Positions 8,822 to 43,605 of a stretch of DNA of 64,000 nucleotides are shown one piece after another. Under the pieces are notes generated by a model. It ran no database searches and was not told where the DNA came from. It worked only from the letters and a program-made list of their open reading frames with translations. The stretch's first letter is position 1; each line of letters begins with the position of its first letter. The DNA comes from an uncultured Acidobacteriaceae bacterium (GTDB taxonomy: Bacteria; Acidobacteriota; Terriglobia; Terriglobales; Acidobacteriaceae): positions 347,537 through 411,536 of the forward strand of contig CAWIMR010000029.1 in assembly GCA_963837245.1 (NCBI GenBank), in the 5' to 3' direction. A program made the translations under genes and the position numbers.

Positions 8822-9294
8822 AGCGTGTAACGATAACGGCTGCGAGCCCCGACGTCCAGAAGCAAAACCGGGCGATCACGAATCACAAGGTCAGCGCCGT
8901 ACCTGTGGGCTGTGACCAAGCGGCTGGAAATATTGGCGGAAGCGTGTGCGAGTCGAACGCACCATTGACACCGCAAGGCGCCAATCGCCGGTTTTGAAGA
9001 CCGGAAGGGTCACCGGACCCCCTTCGCTTCCGCAGTGGGCGGACCGAGGCACCACCGAGTATCGAGTCCGCATACTTAAGGCTTCGCCTGCTTCTGCCGC
9101 GAGATATCTTGCCGTCCCGGACGGTTCTCCCAGTCATTCGCCCCGGACACTGATACTGACTTGCGGTGATAATTTTCTTAGGAGCTGGGACGGAAATCCG
9201 CAACCGTAGGAGCTGGCTAGCAATCTGCTAGATTGTACGGCCCGGGGAGAACTTCCGGTAGTCTCAGAATAAACATCCATGGGAGAGCGCCATC

Positions 9295-30873: not shown

Positions 30874-31049
30874 CCTGCCATAGCTCAGCCTTAAACTGGC
30901 ACACATCGGTGTCGAATCGAGATCAAACATGTGAGGCGTGGTTGGCGTGGACAGTCGTCAATAGGCGATGGTAAGCTTGCCCTCCGATTGCTCGCGTGCG
31001 AGGGCATTTCTCAAGAGCGAGACCCTCCGGCCGTGCGAGGATGACAACG

Positions 31050-32140
31050 ATGGCATCCGATCCGATCACCGCGCCCGTAGCGTTGAGCGCTACCAGGGGC
31101 ATCGCCCAACCGGTAACCGCAGCGCTGGCTCGCGCCGCCATCTTTCTCGTGGTGACTTTAAAACCCGGCCCCGACAATCGCACGGCCCTTCGATCGTTTT
31201 GTGGGGACCTGGCCGCGTTGTTGCGCGCCGTGGGATTTCGCGACCTTGAGGCGGGGCTCTCCTGTGTCCTGGGGTTTGGGTCGGAAGCCTGGGATCGGCT
31301 GTTCGGGCTGCTGCGGCCGGCAGAGCTACATCCATTCCGTGAGATTCGTGCCGGGGCCCGGCATGCCGTCTCTACACCGGGCGACTTGCTGTTTCACATC
31401 CGCGCGAAGCGCATGGACTTGTGCTTCGAGTTGGCGACGCAAATCATGGCACGCATCGGCGATGCGGTTTCGCCGGTCGACGAGGTGCATGGCTTCCGTT
31501 ACTTCGACGACCGCGACCTCCTCGGTTTTGTCGACGGAACGGAGAATCCGACTGGCCAGGCTGCGATCGACGCCGTGGTTGTCGGCGAGGAGGATGCCAT
31601 GTTCGCTGGCGGCAGCTACGTCATCGTGCAAAAGTATCTTCACGACCTTGCGGGATGGAACGGGCTGACCACCGAGGCGCAGGAACGAATCATTGGCCGC
31701 ACGAAACTATCTGACATCGAATTGGACGACTCCATCAAGCCAACCTCAGCCCACAACGCACTCACGACCATCGTCGAAGATGGGAAAGAGATCAAGATCC
31801 TGCGCGATAACATGCCCTTCGGGTCGGTTGCGCAAGGTGAGTTTGGCACCTATTTCATTGGCTATAGCCGGTCGCCCAGCACGATTGAGCAAATGCTGGA
31901 GAACATGTTTATTGGTCGCCCGCCGGGCAACTACGATCGGCTGCTCGATTTCAGTCGCGCCGTCACCGGAAACTTGTTTTTTGCGCCCTCCGCGACATTT
32001 CTGGAAGACGTAGCCGAGGATCAGCCTGCGGTTGTAGGGGTTTCCGCCCAAGCCAGCGGTCGAAGCTTCTTTGCCCGCTGCGCGAGAACGACGGTTCGCT
32101 GGGTATCGGTTCCCTTAAAGGAGACATTCCCCATGAATAA
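31050..32140 (+). CDS. Dyp-type (dye-decolorizing) haem peroxidase, encapsulin cargo with C-terminal targeting peptide; the linker region carries two apparent 1-nt indels
   Basis: Frame 0: FRYFDDRDLLGFVDGTENP (DyP GXXDG motif) ... NLFFAPSATFLEDV. The -1 frame ends ...RENDGSLGIGSLKGDIPHE* (canonical encapsulin cargo-loading peptide) with its TAA at 32138-32140. A Pro/Ala-rich linker GFPPKPAVEASLPAARE is readable in the third frame between them. GAGGA Shine-Dalgarno before ATG 31050. Confidence 0.85.
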
Positions 32141-32951
32141 TCTGCATCGAGAGCTTGCCCCCATTTCCGATGCCGCTTGGGCCCAGATCGAAGAGGAAAC
32201 ATCGCGCACGCTCAAGCGCCACCTCGCAGGACGGCACGTAGTGGACCTGCATGGGCCAGCGGGCGCAAGCCTCTCCGCCGTCGGTACGGGACATCTGCTG
32301 ACGATCCCGGCGCCGGGCGACGGCGTCGTCGCCGGACAGCGCGAACTAAAGGCGCTGGTCGAGATCCGTGTTCCATTCGAACTGGAGCGCCAGGCCATCG
32401 ATGACGTCGAGCGCGGCGCGAACGACTCAGACTGGCAGCCGGCGAAGGACGCCGCGCGCAAGCTCGCTTATGCCGAGGATGGCGCCATCTTCGATGGCTA
32501 TCCCGCCGCTGGAATCGTGGGCATTCGGCAAGGGACCAGCAATCCGGCGATGACCCTCCCCGGCGATGTGCGAGAGTACCCGGTAGCAATTGCCCAAGGC
32601 CTGAGCCAATTGCGGCTTGTCGGCGTCAATGGCCCCTATGCCGTGCTCCTCGATGCCAACGTTTACACTGCGCTGGCCGAGACCAGCGATCAAGGATATC
32701 CGGTACTGGAACATGTCAAACGGCTCGTCGACAACAAAATCATCTGGGCGCCCGCCATCCAGGGTGCTTTTGTGGTCACCACCCGTGGCGGCGATTTTGA
32801 CCTGCACATCGGCCAGGATGTCTCCATTGGCTATTTGAATCACACCGATGCCGCTGTCAGCCTCTACTTGCAGGAGACATTCACTTTCCTGATGCTCACG
32901 GCTGAGGCAGCCATCGCGCTGGCTCCGCCGGTGAAGTCGCAGAAGAACTGA
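32133..32951 (+). CDS. family 1 encapsulin nanocompartment shell protein (HK97-fold, linocin M18-like)
   Basis: MNNLHRELAPISDAAWAQIEEETSRTLKRHLAGRHVVDL...SNPAMTLPGD...GPYAVLLDANVYTALAETSDQGYPVLEHVKRLV..IIWAPAIQGAFVVTTRGGDFDLHIGQDVSIGY...YLQETFTF matches the M. tuberculosis Cfp29/Rv0798c-type encapsulin almost motif-for-motif. AAGGAG Shine-Dalgarno 8 nt upstream; the start overlaps the DyP stop (ATGAATAA). Confidence 0.9.
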   Translation: MNNLHRELAPISDAAWAQIEEETSRTLKRHLAGRHVVDLHGPAGASLSAVGTGHLLTIPAPGDGVVAGQRELKALVEIRVPFELERQAIDDVERGANDSDWQPAKDAARKLAYAEDGAIFDGYPAAGIVGIRQGTSNPAMTLPGDVREYPVAIAQGLSQLRLVGVNGPYAVLLDANVYTALAETSDQGYPVLEHVKRLVDNKIIWAPAIQGAFVVTTRGGDFDLHIGQDVSIGYLNHTDAAVSLYLQETFTFLMLTAEAAIALAPPVKSQKN

Positions 32952-33149: not shown

Positions 33150-36100
33150 TCAGAAGTTAACGCGGAACCCGAACTCCATGGCTCGGGGCGTATTGCCTTG
33201 GCCCGGCGAGGTACCCCAGGAACTCGGGCTGCTGGTGTCGAGGTAATCATTCCCCTGGGTGCCCCCGAAACCAGGATCGAAGAACACCACGTGGTTAAAG
33301 AGATTGAGAAACACGGCCTGCGCTTCAAAACTGACGCGTTCTGTAATCTTGAAGTTTTTCTTCAGGCTGAAATCCACGTTCCAGTACGGTAGCCCACGCA
33401 GGACGCCGATTCCCCCGTCGCGGGTGTCATAGCCAAGAATGGGCTGCCGAATTGAGTTGTACACGGCTGCTGGATCGGCCCAGATATTGACAGGCAGTGA
33501 GCCGCCCGTGCCGACACCATTCGCTGAGGTAACGTTGTAATGTACGCCACTGCTGGGGATCGGTCCTATTGGGATTGCATTTTCGGAGACTCCATTGCCG
33601 AAGAAGTTCACCGAATCGCCTTCGCCGAAGGCCTGCCCGCCACCGTTGACCGTGCCCAGAGTCATGGGCAAGCCACTGCCAGCGACGAAAATCGGCGCGA
33701 AAGTCCAGCCTCCCAGCAGGCGCCCCTTCCACCCCGCCTGTCCCTTGAAGAAGGCAGGCTGGTACACCATGAACAGGTTGTAAACCAGCGTGCGGTCAAA
33801 CCCCTGCAAGCCGTATTGCGTGTGCAGGTTAAACGGGTCGATCGTCGTATCCTCGCTAGTGGCCTGAACCAACGCGCCCGTACCCAGCGCCTTCGACCAG
33901 GTGAAGTTCGACTGCATGGTCAGGCCTTTCCAGTCTGACATCTTGACGGAGATGAAACCGGCGTTGTAATTGCCGTAGCCCAGGCTGGCGTTGACTCCAA
34001 CACCGCTGCTAAGCTGCCCATTGGCGCCGAACTGCCCACCCTGAATGGGAGTATTCAGCATGCTACGCGGGAAGTTGAACCCGCCGTTGTCCAGATCGCT
34101 CCACAGGCTCCACACGTTCTGGATGTCGAGGTTGCCGCTGCCATTAGCGGCGCCTTCTTTGAACGCCACTGCTGCGGTGCAGCTCGAGAACCCATTGCAA
34201 TACCCGGTGCCCGCCAAGGCCGTCTCAAAAAACGGCTGCGGCGTGACTGTCTGGTAACGAATTAGCGTTAGCAGCGCAATTGCTGCCGCGAAGCCCGTTG
34301 ATGCCGCCACAATATTGGAGCACCAGGTTGGCGTAGGCCTTGTCGAAGCGCTGGCCGCCCAGCGTCATCATGTAGGGCACGGAGTTGATGTTAATGGGCT
34401 GGTACTCGTGGGTGATGTGGCGCCCGATATAGCCGAGTTCCATGCTCACCTGGCGCGACAACTGGTGCTGAAACGAGAGGCTCCACGAGTCCACCACGTT
34501 GGGGCGGAAATTCGGGTCCAAAGCCTCACCCGCGCCAGCGGCGATGTCGTTAATACCAGGAAAGTCCGGTTGCGGAAGGGTCGGACTGGCCGGCGGCAAG
34601 GGCGCGTTTAAGCCATTGATGCCGACGCGGAAAGCCGTGGCTGGGTTCGAACCGGAAGAGCTGCCTGCGCAGGTACCATTGGCCAACGCCCCGATGCACT
34701 GTACCGGTTGGATCAGTCCAGTGCCCAACAGCGGCACCAGGACCAGGTCCACCCCATTCAACCGGCCGTAGATTCGACCGTAACCGCCCCGTATGACTGT
34801 GTTGCCGTCGCCCCACGGATCCCATGCGGCCGCAATTCGCGGACTCCATTCTCCGTAATAGGGATTGTAGGGGTATTTGGGGTGTCCCGCGACGTTATCA
34901 ATCAAGGAGAAACCAACCGTCGGGTTATAGACCTGTCCCTGTAAGGCTGCGCTCTCCCGCGAATTCAAGTAGTTCGTGACGCTGATGGGCTTGTCATTCG
35001 AGTCCACCAATATGACTTGCTTACCATTCGCCTCCACCGGCGGCATTTCCAGCGTCCATCCCAGACCGTAGGTCAGAGTGAACCTTGGATTGATGCGCCA
35101 CGTGTCGCTGAAGTACACGTTGTAATAAGGAATGGTGCTCTGGTCGTAGGCCGGCGTTAGCGGAGGATTCAGATTCAGCGCTTTCCCCGACCGGGTGTAG
35201 GCGATCTGCGCGATGGAGACGATACCCAACGTGGCGGCGTAGTCCCGACCCCAGTTCGCTGTGGGAACAAGCGGATTCCCGTTTGCATCGGATGGGACAT
35301 ATCCCGACAAGTTGATTCCGGCGCCGCTGGTCGTACCGAGCTGGTACACGGGGTAGTAGTTAATGCCACCGCCGTTATCGGTACGCTGATGATAGTTCCA
35401 GTTGTGCTGGTACTGACCGCCAAATTGCAGGGTATGCCTGCCTTTGAGCATGGTCACGTCATCCTTAAGCATCCAGTCGTGCCCATCCCAGAAGCGAGTT
35501 CGTGTCCCCTGCGTGTTCACGTTATAGGGGGCGAGGACGTTGGTCCCATTTTCACCCCACGGTTCCAGCGCGCCTCCCAAACCAGGGATCTGCACCGGGT
35601 CTCCTTCAGTGTTCCAGGACCAATAGTTGCGCAGATAGCTATAGTGTAAGTCGTTCGTCGTATTGGTACTGATGTTGGTAGTCAGCCCTGCCACCAGATA
35701 CCACGGCACCTGCGGGTTGTTAGAGACGGCGGCTGGGACACCCAGCTTGTCGCCTGGGAAAAAGCCCCCAATATCAATCTGCCGAGTGGTCACCGGAGTG
35801 AGATGGTAATACCGGTAACTCGACATGAAGTGCCACTTGTCGCCAAAATCGTGGTCCAGGCGAGCGACGCCGAAATTGTCGTCCTGCGGGGTCGACATGT
35901 TGGCTTTGAAGCCTAGAATGTTCGTACCGTCGCAACGGCTGAGGCCGCAGGTGGATTCATTCGACATCGGCATATACTTATTCACATCTGCTGCACTACA
36001 GGGTTTATTCCAATACCCAGCGGATCCCAATCCTTCAGGTTGTAGTTGACTCCATTGAAGGTGAGGATGCCGTTACGCATGTTTTCCGATGGAACCGGCC

Positions 36101-37148
36101 TTTCTATGGTTTGCGAATACGGCCAGCGGAAGCCTTGATACATGCCATAAAAATAAGTTTTGCCGCCCAGCATCTTGGGGAGGATGGGTCCGCCAGCTCC
36201 TGCTCCAAACCGGCTGTAGTGCCAGTTCGGTAGTGGCGTACCGGTAAAGTTGTTGTCCCAAGTATTTGCCGAGAAGTTGTTATCCAGATAGTACTCAAAG
36301 ACCGTGCCGTGCCAGACGTTGGTGCCGCGCTTGGTCACGACCTGCACCTGCGCTCCCGACGAGCTGTTGAAATCGGCGCCTTGCAGGGCAGTGCTGACCT
36401 TGAATTCCTCGACGCTGTCAATCGGAGTCGGCATCACTCCAGTCGGGCCTGCAGCTCCGGTATAAGCCTGATTGGCAATGCCACCGGTGGGGTCGTGGGC
36501 GGCGTAGCTGGTGGTGTACACGCTCATACTGCCATCCATGTCGTTGGTGTTGTTGCCACCATCGAGCATGAAGGTACTCTGGTCCACCACGGTACCCGCC
36601 ACGCTGCCATCAGGGCTGACGCCGGGCTGCAATTCTACGAAGGTACTGACGTCGCGGTCCTGGCTGGGCAGGGATTGCAGCGCCAGTCCGGTGACGGTAT
36701 TGCCGATGGTAGCGTTCGTAGTCTGTAATTCCACCCCAGTGGCCGCCACCTCAATGGTCTGGGTTGCCGTGCCCACTTCCAGCGTGGCGTTAGCAGTGGT
36801 AGGCGTACCAATCTTTACCTGCTGGGCGCCAATCCTGAATTTCTTGAAACCTGACTTGGTCACCGTGATGTCGTAAGTGCTCGGCGGCACGTTGACAAAG
36901 GTATAGAAACCAGCACTGTTGCTGGTGGCTGTGCGCGTCTCTTGCGTGGCCGTGTCGGTCAGGGTGATCGTCGCATTCGGAACCACCGCGCCAGTCTTGT
37001 CGCTAACCGTCCCGGCAACAGTGCCGCCGGATGCGACTTGTGTCCAAGCCGGTACTGCGCCGACCCAAAGCAGGATAGCGGCCATAAGGCCAAAGGTTGC
37101 AAGGAACGAACGTGACGGGAAAGGGTCCCGAAGCTCAGGTCGTGTCAT
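33150..37148 (-). pseudogene. TonB-dependent-receptor-like outer-membrane protein with N-terminal carboxypeptidase-regulatory-like domain (paralog 2), split into three ORFs by two frameshifts
   Basis: ORFs 35982-37205, 34225-36030 and 33150-34310 are collinear pieces homologous to the intact 39435-43031 paralog. They carry a signal peptide, a CarbopepD_reg-like N-terminus (TVAGTVSD..GAVVPNATITLT) and the C-terminal ...PRAMEFGFRVNF* beta-barrel terminus. GGAGGG Shine-Dalgarno before ATG 37148. Confidence 0.7.
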
Positions 37149-37559
37149 TTCTCCCTCCAGAGGTTGACTTGCGTCTAACGTCTGACTTCGCGGATTGGCA
37201 AACAACTATCTAGGCCGCTTGAAAAGAGAGATCCTAACGACAGAAGGCCGAACCGAATTGGGTCTTGAAATGCACCAGCACCTGCCTCTTCGCCCAGAGA
37301 AAACGACAGAGATCTCGGCACCAGCTAAGCGCTCCGAGAACCACCCAAATCCCAAATCTTAAGATCGGAGCGCGGCAAGAATTGGGCACAATGACAGCAT
37401 TTGAGTATCCAAATGTGAAAGCCGGTTAACGTTATGAAAATATTGTAGATTTCCAGAACTGGATTCCAATAAGGTTACGAAATCCTGAATATTTCACGGA
37501 AGCGACATCCAATTTCCCATAGATGACGCCGCGCGGTTGAGGCGGATCGGGCAATCGGC

Positions 37560-39354
37560 ATAGGGGGGACGGTCACCCGTCCGCCCCTGCCACACCACCG
37601 TACATGCGGGTCCGCATACGGCGGTTCGGTCAGTTGAGTTAGCGATCAGACAAGCGTGGCAGCCCGAGTGAGTCGAAGTAGGCAATCGGAAACGCGCTGT
37701 GCAGCAGGCGGCGGTTGACCGCGCTCCAGCCAGCACGTCGCTTCCGCTGCTTCCAGATCACGGAGCGCAACCTGCGTCGAATCCACTGATCCAGAGCCTG
37801 CAGCACCGAGGGCGTCTCGCAGAACCCGAAGTAGCTCTTCCAACCACGCAAGTAGCTGGTCAGTTCCTTCGTCATCTGCTGCAAACTGATACCCCGCGTC
37901 CGGCGCGTCAGTTCCCGTATCTTCCGCTTGCAACGCAGCAGGGCCCTAGGCGCGATGCGCCGTTTCGCCTTTGCTCCGCCAGTAAAGCTGAAGCCCAGAA
38001 ATTTCCGCTGCTGCACTCGCGCCACGGCACTCTTGGCCTCGTTAACCTTGAGCTTGAGTCGCCGCCGCAGGAAGCTGGTCACGTTGCGCATGACCCTCTT
38101 CCCGGCCCGCTCGCTTGCTACGTAGATATTGCAATCATCCGCGTAGCGCACGAAGCGATGCCGGCGCCGCTCCAACTCCCGGTCGAGTTCATCGAGCACC
38201 AGATTCGAGAGCAGTGGTGACAACGGCCCACCTTGCGGCGTGCCTTCGTCCACCGGACTCACCAGCCCATTCTCCATTACCCCCGCTTGCAGAAACGCGC
38301 GGATCAGCTTCAGCATCCGCTTGTCTCCGACGCGGCGGGCTATCGCACTCATCAGCCGGTCGTGGTTCACCCGATCAAAGAACTTTTCCAGATCGAGGTC
38401 CACCACCCAGCCACGGCCTACACGCACGTACTGCTGCGCCTTCGCCACTGCCTGATGGGCGCTGCGCCTGGGCCGAAACCCGTGGCTGTGTTCGGAGAAC
38501 GTTGAGTCCCACTTGCTTTGCAGTACCTGCATCACCGCTTGCTGAATGAACCGATCCAGCACCGTCGGAATGCCCAACTTCCTCACTCCTCCGTCCGGCT
38601 TGGGGATTTCCACCCGCCTTACCGGTTGCGGCCTGTAGCCCCCGCTCAGCAACTGTTCCCGTAGCGCTGGCCAGTGCTGCTTCAGGTAGTCCGGCAACTC
38701 CCCGACACTCATGCCGTCGATCCCCGGACTTCCTTTATTCGACTTCACTCGTTGCAAAGCCCGCAGCAGGTTCTCTCTGCCGCAGACCTCTTCCATCACT
38801 TGCTCGCTGCTAACCGGGCTTTCGCACCCGCGTTTCGCCGTGGACGTTTCGGTCCCTTCCCGCCGAGCCCTTGGAGCTTCACTCCTCCCCTCGCCAGTGA
38901 AGGCCAGCACCATCTGTAGCTGGTTCTTCTGCCGCTTGTCGCCCATCGAGTCCCGCCGGCTACTCGCCGCTCCTTCCGTTCGGGCCTTCGCCACTGGCGT
39001 GACTACTACGCCCGCTGCTGACTTCTGCGACGCGGTCAGAGTGAATCGCTCCACCCTCAGTCCCGATTCCGGGACACGCCACAGACCTCCCGAGGTAAGC
39101 TCAACCGCCTTCAGCGCACAACCGCCGGATTTACCACCAGCAGCTTTGATGGATGTGGGCTTCGCAGTTTTCTGCCCGCTCGCCCGCTGCCGTAGGCCTC
39201 ATCATCCGGTTTTTGTTCATCGGCTCGCGCCTTTGCTCCACGCTTCTTTCAGACCCCGCCTCGCAGCGACGCCCTTGCGCTTCCCTATCACTTCTCCTCC
39301 ATCAGGATGTGAAGAGGACTTTCACCTCCAAGCTGTTGAACATGCTCGGCACAC
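37560..39354 (-). mobile_element. bacterial class C-like group II intron (~1.8 kb), boundaries approximate
   Basis: 5' end GTGTG begins immediately after terminator hairpin plus TTTTTT on the minus strand (plus coords 39350-39354). The reverse transcriptase/maturase ORF sits in the middle. Domain V-like GAACCGCCGTATGCGG-accc-GCATGTACGGTGG and a domain VI hairpin lie downstream of the ORF stop; the 3' end is ...CCCCCTAT. Confidence 0.75.
37639..39054 (-). CDS. group II intron-encoded reverse transcriptase/maturase (no endonuclease domain evident)
   Basis: RVKSNKGSPGIDGM (RT0/1), PKPDGGVRKLGIPTVLDRFIQQA (RT2), FRPRRSAHQA, YADDCNIYV (RT5, YADD) and maturase X-domain motifs; true start probably downstream of the annotated ATG. 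Confidence 0.9.
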   Translation of the reverse strand: MERFTLTASQKSAAGVVVTPVAKARTEGAASSRRDSMGDKRQKNQLQMVLAFTGEGRSEAPRARREGTETSTAKRGCESPVSSEQVMEEVCGRENLLRALQRVKSNKGSPGIDGMSVGELPDYLKQHWPALREQLLSGGYRPQPVRRVEIPKPDGGVRKLGIPTVLDRFIQQAVMQVLQSKWDSTFSEHSHGFRPRRSAHQAVAKAQQYVRVGRGWVVDLDLEKFFDRVNHDRLMSAIARRVGDKRMLKLIRAFLQAGVMENGLVSPVDEGTPQGGPLSPLLSNLVLDELDRELERRRHRFVRYADDCNIYVASERAGKRVMRNVTSFLRRRLKLKVNEAKSAVARVQQRKFLGFSFTGGAKAKRRIAPRALLRCKRKIRELTRRTRGISLQQMTKELTSYLRGWKSYFGFCETPSVLQALDQWIRRRLRSVIWKQRKRRAGWSAVNRRLLHSAFPIAYFDSLGLPRLSDR

Positions 39355-39384
39355 AAAAAAGGCCACCCGCAGAAGCGGGTGGCT
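39355..39384 (-). terminator. rho-independent terminator of the upstream TonB-dependent-receptor-like gene, and the group II intron target site
   Basis: Minus strand: GCCACCCGC-TTCT-GCGGGTGGC then CTTTTTT. Confidence 0.65.
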
Positions 39385-39434
39385 CTGAGAACAACGGCAG
39401 CGTTCCTGGCAACCGCCGGCGCAAAGGCCGCAGC

Positions 39435-42400
39435 TTAGAACGCAATGCGCATGCCGAACTCCATGGCGCGTGGCGCGCCCAGGTTGAAAACACCGGTACC
39501 GACCCCTACGCGGTTGGTAATGCGATCGGCGGCAGTGGTGCCATTGATCGTGCCCGCGCTGCCCGTCAAGGCACCGGTCAGGGCGTTCGGAGGCAGGTCA
39601 AAGTTGGCGAAATTGAAGAGGTTGTAGAAACCCACACCGGGCTGGAGTTGAATGACATGGCTCTTCAACTCAACGTTGTAGGTCCAGTTTAACTTCAGGT
39701 CAAAGTCTCGAAGCGAACCCAGGTTCACCTGGCCGTTGGGAGCGGGTTGCAGGGTGCAGTTCGGACTGTTGATGCCCATTCCCTGAACACATGGCGCCAC
39801 TCCACCAAGTTGCTGGAGCTGGCTGACGGTGAACAGGCCATTGTTGACCAGCGTCATTCCGGCTGGCGTTGGCTGGTTACCTTGGGTGGCATTGTAGCTC
39901 GCCAATAACGTATTAAGCGTACTGGCATGGACGGACCTTCCGTAGGCTCCATTGAGCGTTCCCGGCAGCGGATCCCCCGTTGTACCGTCACCCGTGAAAT
40001 CGGTCTGGAATATCTGTCCCGCTCCAGATCCAGGTACGATGATCGGCAGCGGCAACGACGAATTGAAGTGGCCGATGAAGGAGACCTGGAAGTGCCACGG
40101 CAGGCTACCGACAACGCCGAAGGAAAACTGCTGGGGGCGATCGAGCAGCGAGGGCCCAAAATACCGGTTCGGGTTTTCATTGTCTAGCGCAGGAATCACG
40201 AAGTCCTGATCACTGTTGGCGACCGCACCCGGCGCGGTAGCACTGCCACCACCCGAGTTCTTGAAGGAAGAGTAGGCGTAGGAGATCTGTGCGTTCAAGC
40301 CGGGGAGCCACTTAGCCACGTTGTGTTTTTGATAGGTGAGTTTCATCTCCACCGCGTTGTATTTCGAGATTCCTGAGGGAACCATGAATGTCATCGCGGG
40401 CGCTGCCGGATTTAGGCCTCCAAAGGCGCAGCCTCCCGGTGGGCAAGATCCCGTTCCACCCAGATCACCTTGGGAATCCAAGCCATTCTGGGCAAAACTG
40501 CTGATGGTCGCGCCGTTCGCAATGGCACAATTGATCGCGGCCGCACTGGAGCCTCCCGCGCAACCGAACGAGGCAGTGGTGTTTGCGATCGCCGTCTGAG
40601 CGTTCGCCTTATTGAAGTACTTCACGTCGCCGGTGTGGTTCAAATCCACGCCAAGCAGCAGGCCCGTGGTGACGTTGCGGACATAGTCCACGCTGCCCAC
40701 GACGCCAGGCGCAAATTCATGCTGTATGCCAACATTGATCTGGGTGGAACGTGGTGTCTTATAGTTGGGAGCAAACAGGCCGATCGGAAAGTTTATGCCC
40801 CCGTTGAGGTAACCCGAAACGATGTAGTTGGGGTTGGGATTATTAAGGTTGAACGGGTTGGCCGCCTGGTATTGCTGCTGCAAGGTTGCAATCGCCGAAC
40901 CCACTTGGCCCAGGGAAAGCTGACTGCCATCAGGAGCGAGACCGCAATCCTCAGGCGTGACGGTTGGCTGACCGGAGCCCGGAAGCTGAGTTATGGTTCC
41001 GAAAACGCAGGGTGTCGGGGTCTGCAGGAACGCGCCATTCTGAAGCCGCAATGGGCGATCAAAAAGGACATTGTTAAAGATCACGTTCTCGTAATACAGG
41101 CCAATGCCCGCACGAACCACGTTTTTGCCGGTTTTCCATGGATCCCAAGCGATTCCCAGGTTGGGGCCGAAATTCAGGTTCGGATTGGGAATTGCATTGC
41201 CCAGATTAGGAAAGTCCGAAACCACATTGTTCAGCGCGGGTATGCCCGGCAGATCGCTGTCCGTGCGGCCGGTGTCGCGTACATAGCGCAGGCCGAGATT
41301 CACGGTGAAATTAGAAAACATCTTCCAAGTGTCAGCGATATACGCTCCCAAGCGATTATCCGGTCCCAGTCCGCCAGCCGGGAAGCCAAACGCCGACTGG
41401 GTTGTGGAGAAACCCTGGCCGTTGCCAAGGATCACGATATCAACAGGATAATTAAGAGGGTTCCCAGCGCCGCCGGGATAGGGCCCGGCAGCCGCGAAAG
41501 CTTGGTCTCCTGAATAGTTGGTAACTACTTGCGGCGCCAGCGAAAAGAACTTCGCAAAGCCACCGCCTTGTATGTGGTTATAGTCCACGCCATAGCGCAG
41601 GATGTGCTTACCAACGGTCTTTGAGCCGTCGTACTTGATTTGGTGGTCACTCTGGGGCGTGCTTTGCGGCGCCAGAAGGTTGGGCCCAGTAGAGGGGCCG
41701 TTATTGACGTCGATGTTGAGATAAAGGCCGTTGCCGGGGAAGTTCGCCAGCGGCAGCGTGCTGCCGATGACCGCGTCCGCGATTTCGTTCTGGAACTTCA
41801 GATAGCTGAAGCGAATGCTGTGGGTCCAGGCGCCGGTGACGAAATCGGCGCCACCTACGTAATTGCGGACGTAGTTTTTCGACTGATACACCTGAAGGCT
41901 GTCGGAAAAGAAGGTGCCCTCCGCCTTGATTTGCGAGTAGCTGTAGCGGAAGAACAGCTTGATGTTGTGGGGTGCGACGAAATCCACGCGCCCCAGAGCA
42001 TTGGGGTTTGAGAAGGGCGAGTTGAAGCCCCCTGAGAAACTATCAAAGGGTGGGGCATACTGGACGGGCCCGAACAGGCTCTGGTTGGTCCCGTCGCCTT
42101 CCGCGAAGTAGAACAACTTGTCCTTGATAAAGGCTCCGCCCACGCTGCCACCGTATTGGTTGCGGTGATAATTGGGATCGTCGAAACCCGCAGGCTTTGG
42201 CAAGGACGCATCCACGCTGCTGGTGCGGTAATATTCGTAGCCCTCGCCGTGGATGGTGTTGGTACCTGACTTGGTGGACACGTTGACCACGCCTGACGAA
42301 CTCAGATCGTTGGATAAATCCATTGTGGATTGCGCGATCTGGAATTCCTGAATGGCGCTGGCCGAGATGTTGCCCGTGGTCGTGCCGACGGTTTCGTCGG

Positions 42401-43031
42401 AGATGTCCGTGCCATCCACCTGGATACGCGCGGTGCGGCCGAAACGGCCGCCAAACGAAATGGACTGGTAGCCAATCTTGGTTGGGTCGAAGTTGGTTCC
42501 ATCCTGAATCTGCACGCCCGGCTCAAGCTGCGCCAGATCGAGGAAATTACGGCCATTGACGGGTAAATTCTCAATCTGGGTCGCGGTCAGAACACCCTGC
42601 ACCGACGTCTGTTCGGTGTTTACGCCAACCGCCGCCGCCTCGACATTGACGGTCGTGGACTCCGAGCCCACTTGCAACTTGAAATTGACAGCGCTGTTGT
42701 TGCCGATTTGGACCAGCACACTGGTCTCGGAACGGGAAAACCCTTTTGCCTGCACGCTGACCGTGTAGGTGCCCGCCGTGATCGAGCCGGAGTTATAGGA
42801 CCCGCTCGAGTTGGTGGTCACGTTGGTCGTGACGCCGGTGTCGGTCCGGGTGATGGCCACCTTGGCCCCCGACACGGCAGCCCCGCTGGGATCGGTTACC
42901 GTGCCATTGATGTTCCCCGTGGATATGGTGGATTGGGCATTCAGGGTGGAGGGCAGCAACAGGAGCAGAGTTGCCAGCGCAGCAATTAGACAAAGGATCG
43001 CGCGCCGTTCGTGGGCGTTCAAACGCGTCAT
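39435..43031 (-). CDS. TonB-dependent-receptor-like outer-membrane protein with N-terminal carboxypeptidase-regulatory-like domain (paralog 1, intact, ~1198 aa)
   Basis: Signal peptide MTRLNAHERRAILCLIAALATLLLLLPSTLNA; INGTVTDPSGAAVSGAKVAITRTDTG..; C-terminus ..GAPRAMEFGMRIAF*; GAGAGGA Shine-Dalgarno. The ORF track start at 43109 is an upstream in-frame extension. Confidence 0.8.
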   Translation of the reverse strand: MTRLNAHERRAILCLIAALATLLLLLPSTLNAQSTISTGNINGTVTDPSGAAVSGAKVAITRTDTGVTTNVTTNSSGSYNSGSITAGTYTVSVQAKGFSRSETSVLVQIGNNSAVNFKLQVGSESTTVNVEAAAVGVNTEQTSVQGVLTATQIENLPVNGRNFLDLAQLEPGVQIQDGTNFDPTKIGYQSISFGGRFGRTARIQVDGTDISDETVGTTTGNISASAIQEFQIAQSTMDLSNDLSSSGVVNVSTKSGTNTIHGEGYEYYRTSSVDASLPKPAGFDDPNYHRNQYGGSVGGAFIKDKLFYFAEGDGTNQSLFGPVQYAPPFDSFSGGFNSPFSNPNALGRVDFVAPHNIKLFFRYSYSQIKAEGTFFSDSLQVYQSKNYVRNYVGGADFVTGAWTHSIRFSYLKFQNEIADAVIGSTLPLANFPGNGLYLNIDVNNGPSTGPNLLAPQSTPQSDHQIKYDGSKTVGKHILRYGVDYNHIQGGGFAKFFSLAPQVVTNYSGDQAFAAAGPYPGGAGNPLNYPVDIVILGNGQGFSTTQSAFGFPAGGLGPDNRLGAYIADTWKMFSNFTVNLGLRYVRDTGRTDSDLPGIPALNNVVSDFPNLGNAIPNPNLNFGPNLGIAWDPWKTGKNVVRAGIGLYYENVIFNNVLFDRPLRLQNGAFLQTPTPCVFGTITQLPGSGQPTVTPEDCGLAPDGSQLSLGQVGSAIATLQQQYQAANPFNLNNPNPNYIVSGYLNGGINFPIGLFAPNYKTPRSTQINVGIQHEFAPGVVGSVDYVRNVTTGLLLGVDLNHTGDVKYFNKANAQTAIANTTASFGCAGGSSAAAINCAIANGATISSFAQNGLDSQGDLGGTGSCPPGGCAFGGLNPAAPAMTFMVPSGISKYNAVEMKLTYQKHNVAKWLPGLNAQISYAYSSFKNSGGGSATAPGAVANSDQDFVIPALDNENPNRYFGPSLLDRPQQFSFGVVGSLPWHFQVSFIGHFNSSLPLPIIVPGSGAGQIFQTDFTGDGTTGDPLPGTLNGAYGRSVHASTLNTLLASYNATQGNQPTPAGMTLVNNGLFTVSQLQQLGGVAPCVQGMGINSPNCTLQPAPNGQVNLGSLRDFDLKLNWTYNVELKSHVIQLQPGVGFYNLFNFANFDLPPNALTGALTGSAGTINGTTAADRITNRVGVGTGVFNLGAPRAMEFGMRIAF

Positions 43032-43605
43032 ACGCTTTTCCTCTCTAGGGATGTCGTCAACCTGCCAGATCGCCCACCAGAAGACGTGCGTCTTCTTCCC
43101 GCCGGTCAACCTTGTGAATGTGCGCTGTCAACTTTGACAACGAATGCCGCAGCCCGATAGCTGCGGATCGCAACTGCCGGTTTCCAAATTCGGTGGTTAC
43201 AGTGACGAAAATAGAAGGTGGAGCATGTGCCGAGGAAAGACTGGTTCCACTGGCAAACCAGACGGAAGTGGCATACTGCCGGACTGTGTAGCGTAGCCAA
43301 GTAACTTGGCACAACCGACCCCACATCGGTGGCGCTTATTGCCGACTTGGGGTGCTTCTATGCAATTGGTTAGCCAAACCAGAGAGGAAGTAACTCTCTG
43401 GAAACACTAAAGCCGAGGGGCGGATTGCTGGATTAATGGTACGAAATTCAGAATGCTGAGATTTATGAAATCCTGTTTTTCATAGCCGAGGTGGATATCG
43501 ACAACGACAGCGGCAGCTGAACTCCTTGGACTTGGGGAACCGGCCTTCGGTCGGCAAGAGCTAAAGTAACCTGTTAAACATGCCAAGGAGGTTATAATAA
43601 CTTCG

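Follow-up and report, generated by a model that had tools for sequence, protein, structure and literature searches.

Group II introns of bacterial class C (IIC) are separated from the other group II introns by a set of RNA features (Toor et al. 2006, PMC1702495), each of which is examined here in an intron found within a 64,000-nucleotide (nt) stretch of contig CAWIMR010000029.1 from an uncultured Acidobacteriaceae bacterium (hereafter the window). In IIC introns, the basal stem of domain V (DV) carries a CGC triad in place of the AGC triad, the distal stem of DV is 2 base pairs (bp) shorter than in IIA and IIB introns, and an 11-nt bulge in domain I contains a conserved AGGAA (PMC1702495). 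Intron-binding site 1 (IBS1) pairs with exon-binding site 1 (EBS1) over 3–4 bp and there is no EBS2/IBS2, whereas the IIA and IIB RNA types use IBS2–EBS2 and pairings of about 6 bp (PMC1702495).

A passage of PMC12584367, citing other work, describes the class of GsI-IIC, the intron of Geobacillus stearothermophilus, as inserting after Rho-independent terminators. In the ribonucleoprotein (RNP) of the IIC intron of Eubacterium rectale (MarathonRT; 7UIM/7UIN), maturase residues N378, R381, and R382 contact the DNA spacer between the target stem and IBS1 (7UIN), and K388–A391 and N395 provide support to both the EBS1 loop and the stem base (PMC10190682). The IIC-attC introns (S.ma.I2 lineage) target integron attC sites, entering the bottom strand and pointing against the direction in which the cassette genes are transcribed (PMC3001079).

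The element in the window is almost certainly a full-length IIC group II intron retroelement that entered the terminator of the upstream gene by reverse splicing into its DNA stem-loop. It belongs to a well-described kind, the IIC introns behind intrinsic terminators. The first-pass annotation of the window had proposed a class C intron behind an intrinsic terminator, and the Rfam models, the affinity of the reverse transcriptase (RT) to IIC proteins, and the hairpin with its U-tract bear this out. Positions given below are those of the window, and features lie on the minus strand unless stated otherwise.

Boundaries, ribozyme, and exon pairings

The intron occupies positions 37554..39354 (1801 nt, from 5' GUGUG to GAU 3'), as delimited by blastn ends and Rfam matches. 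The region was compared by blastn with 80 related loci of GTDB genomes, which come almost entirely from Acidobacteriota. Similarity begins at 39354–39360 and stops at 37554 (± 2 nt) in nearly every locus, with unrelated sequence beyond. The 5' end reads GTGTGCCGAGC from 39354, and its GTGTG follows the T-tract directly, as had been noticed before. The 3' end reads ...CCUAUGCCGAU at 37554. Relatives carry GGGA/UCCC or GACA/UGUC where the basal helix of domain VI (DVI) reads GGCA/UGCC, a covariation with 13 and 3 compensatory changes, and the boundary at 37554 alone gives an EBS3–IBS3 pair, in which the 3'-exon T at 37553 is complementary to its covarying nucleotide. Therefore, with the stop of conservation, the basal-helix covariation, and the EBS3–IBS3 pairing all in agreement, the 3' end is placed at 37554. 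The end proposed earlier, 37560 (...CCCCCTAT), falls 6 nt short of it and is one base past the bulged branch-point A at 37561, which lies 7 nt before the 3' splice site.

The full window was searched with Rfam at gathering thresholds, and the interval 37300–39600 was scanned permissively. The domain I core (39099..39270) matches group-II-D1D4-3 (RF02001) over the full model (1–170; 128.9 bits against a gathering score of 32, E 3e-26), and the domain II–III region (38983..39060) matches group-II-D1D4-1 (RF01998; 41.6 bits against a gathering score of 35). The permissive scan adds a sub-threshold match of DV and DVI to Intron_gpII (RF00029) at 37626–37554 (38.8 bits, E 1.6e-5). DV (37594..37625) is 32 nt long, with the CGC triad at 37623–37621, a 2-nt bulge, and a 4-bp distal stem, and DVI (37557..37591) carries the bulged branch-point A at 37561.

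In an alignment of 36 relatives, the 13 pairs of DV are 98.9% paired, five of them with compensatory changes, and the 14 pairs of DVI are 97.6% paired, nine of them, including the basal helix GGCA/UGCC, with compensatory changes. Taken together, the two domains reach 98.2% pairing and 14 compensatory pairs, values that no column shuffle out of 500 attains, and sliding the 3' partners by 1–3 columns lowers the pairing to 40–53%. The covariation in these 36 relatives confirms the sub-threshold RF00029 match, and with it the DV-like helix and DVI hairpin that had been noted past the open reading frame (ORF). On its sequence, the ribozyme has all six domains. Further Rfam matches over 39353–39488 (rsmX, Qrr, and RcsR1) score far under the gathering thresholds of these models and reflect the terminator hairpin alone.

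The G and the second C of the CGC triad are invariant in the 36 copies and the first C is present in 35 of them; the triad G forms a G–U pair. The distal stem of DV is made of 4 bp (UGCG/CGCA) and is closed by a tetraloop, and the Rfam alignment shows a four-position deletion in the DV apex. In IIA and IIB introns the distal stem is usually 6 bp, as in the DV of ai5gamma. The 11-nt bulge of IIC type is located at 39243..39253 (UCUGAAAGAAG, aligned to the RF02001 consensus UCUGAAGGAA) and appears to be present in a variant form. Among 57 relatives, about half have AGGAA in this bulge, nearly all others have AAGAA, and one has AAGCA.

Exon pairing was assessed by the mutual information between exon positions and all columns of the first 430 nt of the intron in 57 distinct copies. 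The best partners of exon positions -1, -2, and -3 are intron positions 182, 183, and 184 (mutual information 0.99, 0.35, and 1.23, respectively), which are antiparallel and contiguous, and Watson-Crick pairing between the two triplets is 84–91%. In the window, these intron positions are EBS1 (39171..39173; 5'-AGA-3' in the loop GCAGAAAAC), which pairs with the UUU of IBS1 with one G–U pair included. The column that covaries best with 3'-exon position +1 is intron position 224 (C:G in 32 of 56 copies, T:A in 18 of 56). In the window the pair is T:A, formed by EBS3 (A, 39131..39131) and IBS3 (T, 37553..37553), the first nucleotide of the 3' exon. The mutual-information scan finds no contiguous complementary intron partner for exon positions -4 to -14, indicating that there is no EBS2. 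Exon recognition therefore has the IIC pattern, with a short IBS1, an IBS3, and a stem-loop in the place of IBS2, and EBS1 and EBS3 both still match the flanks, the trace expected from reverse splicing at this exact position.

The gene upstream of the intron (39435..43109 in the ORF list) encodes a 1224-residue (aa) outer-membrane receptor-like protein with CarboxypepD_reg and OMP_b-brl_4 domains (PF13620, 4e-19; PF25183, 3e-53). Its stop codon, TAA at 39437–39435, is at the position given in the first-pass annotation, and so is the hairpin that follows, GCCACCCGC-TTCT-GCGGGTGGC (39362..39383), found in the sequence and in a terminator scan. This hairpin begins 51 nt downstream of the stop codon, i.e., outside the ORF, and is a perfect stem of 9 bp (8 of them G–C) with a 4-nt loop. 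It is followed by a spacer of C and T6 (39355..39361), of which the last three T (39357–39355) are IBS1. The terminator scan reports the hairpin with C-T6 immediately preceding the intron, which has the same orientation as the receptor gene. The rebuilt empty site reads hairpin-C-T7-GCCCGATCC (full predicted sequence GCCACCCGCTTCTGCGGGTGGCCTTTTTTTGCCCGATCC) and would be a normal Rho-independent terminator; the predicted ligated-exon junction is ...GGUGGCCUUUUUU|UGCCCGAUCC, i.e., ...CUUUUUU|UGCCCG. The hairpin ahead of the intron is the real terminator of the receptor gene.

The window intron resembles the reference IIC RNA, B.h.I1 of Bacillus halodurans, in the CGC triad, the DV distal stem shortened by 2 bp, and, in variant form, the 11-nt bulge, as well as in the 3–4 bp IBS1–EBS1 pairing, the IBS3–EBS3 pair, the lack of EBS2, and the terminator stem-loop at the IBS2 position. 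It differs in the bulge motif, AAGAA instead of AGGAA; the comparison with B.h.I1 is one of published features, not of sequences (PMC1702495). With the E. rectale IIC RNP it shares the target logic of a DNA stem, a short spacer, IBS1, and IBS3.

Target sites of the relatives

The upstream 45–50 nt were extracted at every intron 5' end in the fetched loci. A first set holds 86 distinct sites, of which 50 remain once those behind another intron and those behind the conserved motif of a sister clade (see below) are set aside. These 50 sites have a mean folding energy of -20.9 kcal/mol, against -9.9 and -11.0 kcal/mol in control intervals 200–345 nt upstream, and a mean of 5 T among the last 8 bases. 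In an enlarged set, a hairpin with a T-rich tail is present at about 43 of 49 distinct, non-tandem terminator-type sites of relatives, the GC-rich stem (median 8 bp) ending 5–10 nt before the insertion. Other copies thus do lie behind terminators, as the first-pass annotation had expected. The window site, with its 9-bp stem, a stem-to-insertion spacing of 7 nt, and a folding energy of -21.6 kcal/mol for the 45 nt 5' of the intron, is typical of the family, and terminator targeting is a property of the family. A scan for the terminator pattern alone gives no enrichment (2 sites against 2.7 expected).

The window intron is like the IIC-attC introns in its class and in being directed to a DNA stem-loop. 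Unlike them, it lies behind a canonical hairpin and T-run in the orientation of the upstream gene, and no integron features are seen. The perfect GC hairpin and T-run in this orientation rule out membership in the IIC-attC lineage.

A more distant sister clade of introns, with intron-encoded proteins (IEPs) 61–67% identical by tblastn, is always found behind a conserved motif of about 33 nt, ...ACGCGnAGCGTCCGCCGC-N4-GCGGCTTCGTT|C (loci L032, L044, L045, L047, L052, L053, L055–L058, L060–L065, L067–L073, and L078; 5' junctions near 2520). The hosts are Acidobacteriota, Alphaproteobacteria, and Burkholderiales, and EBS1 (AAC) and EBS3 (G) of these introns match the motif. The motif is a sequence-specific stem-loop target rather than a terminator, for which an attC-like site, a repetitive extragenic palindromic (REP) element, or another mobile element are candidates. 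The target GCCGC-N4-GCGGC-TTCGTT|C does not fit the attC cores GTTRRRY and RYYYAAC.

Tandem arrays of introns are found in several loci (L007 4463/4464, L018 4463/4464, L029 1945–6968, L091 3709–7393, L093 7393–7396, and L094–L097). In these arrays, a new copy lies directly after the DVI hairpin and the ...GCCGAU of the resident intron, so that DVI seems to mimic a terminator stem-loop. In L029, ORF-less mini-introns of 625 nt alternate with full copies of 1887 nt, and some tandem junctions lack the first G of the downstream intron (GCCGAU|UGUGCC). In L035, L038, L039, L043, and L050, the intron ends are 3.4–4.0 kb apart instead of the usual 1.9 kb or so, indicating an insertion inside the intron or between partial copies. 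The contigs of L081/L083/L086, and likewise those of L085/L087, have a common 5' flank and an identical intron followed by different 3' flanks, which suggests either that intron copies of 100% identity have recombined or that the assembly is chimeric across the repeat.

The maturase and its shortened D domain

The IEP (37639..38946) is a protein of 435 aa plus stop, with RT and X/thumb domains, a shortened DNA-binding (D) domain, and no endonuclease (En) domain. The 471-aa RT/maturase ORF of the first-pass annotation exists as the maximal ORF, from a GTG at 39054 (39054..37639), and its YADD motif and lack of En stand, but the start is likely the ATG at 38946, as in the homologues. Pfam assigns RVT_1 (PF00078, 2.5e-40) and GIIM (PF08388, 1.4e-19) to the IEP, and the NCBIfam model of group II intron RT/maturases, TIGR04416, scores 428.9 bits against a cutoff of 300. 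The YADD motif (38134..38145; residues 268–271) is invariant in the alignments of the protein. No match to an En/HNH domain is found in the IEP, which ends 32 aa past the thumb.

Among solved structures, the IEP is closest to the GsI-IIC RT (6AR1, 451 bits, E 3e-134), followed by the E. rectale IIC maturase (344 bits) and the R. intestinalis IIC RT domain (305 bits). Outside IIC, LtrA (IIA) reaches 142 bits and the T. elongatus IIB maturase (T.el4h) 127 bits. The grouping of the RT with group II proteins rather than with retrons or diversity-generating retroelements (DGRs), expected from the first inspection, is borne out by TIGR04416 and by the IIC structures at the top of this ranking. GsI-IIC is also an En-less IIC intron, and its RT aligns from RT0 through the thumb (IEP residues 50–403 with chain residues 3–356). 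Unlike the GsI-IIC RT, the window IEP has a 49-aa N-terminal extension, and about 23–25 aa are missing from its D domain, corresponding approximately to GsI-IIC residues 357–379. The hosts differ as well, the window host being acidobacterium-like and that of GsI-IIC a Firmicute. The N-terminal extension (residues 1–49, 38800–38946; MxDKRQKNQLQMVLAFT.EGRSEAP...GTE..TAK...ESP) precedes RT0 and is conserved in all relatives aligned; the GsI-IIC RT and the E. rectale maturase do not have it.

The shortening of the D domain, the single unusual trait of this intron, is a clean in-frame gap of 25 aa. Compared with long-form relatives that are 79–85% identical (P0035, P0049, P0086, P0114, and the L014 protein), the gap follows WKQRKR, and its junction (37737..37738) lies between residues 403 and 404, as placed by the protein alignment and by a blastn break at 37739. 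In accordance, the IEP aligns with the GsI-IIC RT only as far as residue 403. When mapped through P0114 onto 7uim_D and 6ar1_A, the deletion corresponds to residues 363–387 of the E. rectale maturase. The equivalents of the spacer-contacting residues N378, R381, and R382 fall inside the deleted stretch, and those of K388–A391 and N395 are kept. Past the deletion, the protein continues with WSAVNRRLLHS, departing from the WRLANSPAL of the family consensus. A structural model of the short form predicted from a 48-sequence alignment was too poor for any conclusion (mean predicted local distance difference test, pLDDT, 54; predicted template modelling score, pTM, 0.44). Within the literature that could be searched, nothing relevant was found on class C introns of acidobacteria or on any IIC lineage whose D domain is truncated.

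The short form is widespread. Most of the top 120 protein clusters are 431–436 aa long. Introns of 1803 nt that are 100% identical and encode the short-form protein P0062 lie behind at least five different hairpins, and another short-form protein, P0001, is encoded by three identical intron copies at different sites within a single sample. The P0001 intron is the closest relative found, its DNA being 90.5% identical to the window intron. The short-form lineage seems mobile, because 100% identical copies occur at several different sites. The 18 distinct full-length short-form sites, with one ORF-less mini-intron counted alongside, are canonical terminators with hairpin and T-run. The D-domain deletion has no clear effect on the spacing from stem to insertion site: the median is 7 nt for the short form and 8 nt for the long form, with overlapping ranges and sites that are phylogenetically non-independent.

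Several observations weigh against a mobile intron of standard IIC type. The loss of 25 aa from the D domain could have impaired the window copy. Look-ups of the exact 435-aa IEP, the 471-aa ORF, and the neighbouring deformylase in protein collections without the source genome gave no match, and no second copy of the intron is found within the 64-kb window. As regards the RNA, the RF00029 match suggested in the first-pass annotation was obtained, but its score is 1.2 bits under the gathering score of 40, and the 11-nt bulge reads AAGAA, one base off the canonical AGGAA.

The intron could, accordingly, be of class C and yet a stranded, non-mobile fossil whose target recognition was crippled by the deletion. 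The nature of the lost stretch, which includes the equivalents of the spacer-contacting residues of the E. rectale maturase (PMC10190682), the divergent segment WSAVNRRLLHS, and the single copy in the window are what such a fossil might show. Against it, the rest of the ORF is intact, and YADD, DV, DVI, EBS1/IBS1, and EBS3/IBS3 are all in order. The copy looks functional, given its intact ORF, intact catalytic RNA elements, and intact exon pairings. Moreover, the deletion is common to more than 100 protein clusters of 431–436 aa, identical short-form copies lie behind at least five and at least three different terminators in two lineages, and the short-form sites (18 full-length and one mini-intron) retain the canonical hairpin and T-run. 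We therefore consider a fossil unlikely and retain the reading of an intact IIC intron.

There is about an even chance that the short forms make up a large Acidobacteriota-centred IIC sub-lineage that has a maturase without these 25 aa, including the spacer-gripping residues, and is still proliferating behind canonical terminators. We infer that the short-form copies are moved by their own protein. Because short- and long-form introns co-occur, even in tandem (L091), the short-form copies may alternatively be mobilised in trans by co-resident long-form maturases. In relation to the E. rectale RNP, whose maturase matches the IEP with 344 bits, the IEP is missing the equivalents of 363–387, with those of K388–A391 and N395 in place.

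Other readings, neighbouring genes, and significance

It is very unlikely that the intron belongs to another En-less class (D, E, F, or unclassified) and lies beside the terminator by chance. No structure has been solved for classes D, E, and F, and the ranking of PDB matches therefore gives no direct exclusion of them. However, the CGC triad, the DV distal stem shortened by 2 bp, the variant 11-nt bulge, the 3-bp EBS1, and the lack of EBS2 are all seen. PMC4424553 lists D, E, and F, the other En-less classes, under IIB, and the IIA and IIB RNA types use IBS2–EBS2 and pairings of about 6 bp (PMC1702495). In addition, the identity to IIC RTs spans the whole RT and thumb (E 3e-134), and terminators are targeted across the family.

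The first-pass annotation had also suggested that the intron may mark the boundary of a recent tandem duplication of receptor genes, one copy of which then decayed. Both flanking genes do encode CarboxypepD_reg and OMP_b-brl_4 domains, and the downstream gene (33150..37205) is frameshifted, as stated there: its three ORFs (37205–35982, 36030–34225, and 34310–33150) cover positions 1–88, 123–588, and 592–835 of the PF25183 profile in order, indicating two frame disruptions. The first looks like the loss of one G in ATG TGG AAT near 35985, and the second lies between 34310 and 34225. At least 12 other window genes tested match their profiles end to end, indicating that the assembly is not generally frameshift-prone. 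The downstream gene is probably a young pseudogene, unless the assembly is locally in error.

The duplication itself, however, is highly improbable as the event that the intron marks. The two receptor genes, described earlier as about 45% identical, are 26%, 24%, and 32% identical in partial local BLASTP alignments. With an identity of only about 25% over parts of their length, any duplication must be ancient, and the two genes are old, distant members of a family. The intron is intergenic, at the upstream terminator and about 350 nt upstream of the start of the downstream gene; a promoter-like site for that gene (37469–37442) lies past the intron's 3' end; and the frame disruptions are about 1.2 to 3.3 kb away from the intron. 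The intron is unconnected with the decay of the downstream gene and is silent on the history of the receptor genes.

A non-intron RT (retron, DGR, or defence RT) with GUGYG and hairpins by chance can be dismissed, as the retron and Drt matches are weak and sub-threshold (at most 79 bits against cutoffs of 200–600), whereas three Rfam group II models match in the right order around the ORF, the GIIM maturase domain is present, TIGR04416 is above its cutoff, and covariation in relatives backs both boundaries and the exon-binding pairs. Among such NCBIfam models, retron St85 comes highest, with 79.3 bits where its cutoff is 235, and the other retron, Drt, and Abi models score lower.

Two other features of the window, separate from the intron, may be recorded. 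A selenocysteine tRNA gene is located at 8938–9031 on the minus strand (RF01852; 68.4 bits against a gathering score of 47), indicating that the organism probably makes selenoproteins. On the plus strand, a 651-aa ORF (30996–32951) joins a DyP-type peroxidase (aa 38–334) to the encapsulin shell protein Linocin_M18 (aa 380–630); it is either a fusion of cargo and shell or the product of a missed stop or frameshift that ran two genes together.

Following the steps described for IIC introns (PMC1702495, PMC4424553, PMC10190682), the excised intron RNA and the maturase would form an RNP that docks on the stem-loop of the terminator in single-stranded DNA, recognising it by shape. Three to four bases would be read through EBS1 and one base through EBS3. 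The intron RNA would then reverse-splice into the single-stranded DNA, to be copied into complementary DNA (cDNA). Since the protein has no En domain, priming of the cDNA would come from the replication fork.

The hairpin keeps six U ahead of the intron and should therefore still terminate transcription. With a working terminator, the host gene would be untouched and the intron would be transcribed by read-through only. A position behind both the stop codon and the terminator would thus bring no cost to the host gene and weak transcription to the intron, making this locus a textbook case of how IIC introns are harmless to the host behind terminators. The element is best annotated as a mobile class C group II intron (39354..37554) rather than as a "retron-type RT" gene. 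If the short-form sub-lineage does proliferate as proposed, this part of the D domain would be dispensable for the targeting of structured DNA, or its role would have been taken over by the RNA, and the short form would be a natural minimal IIC maturase. The shortened D domain could then inform both the recognition of structured DNA by IIC RNPs and the engineering of compact group II RTs.

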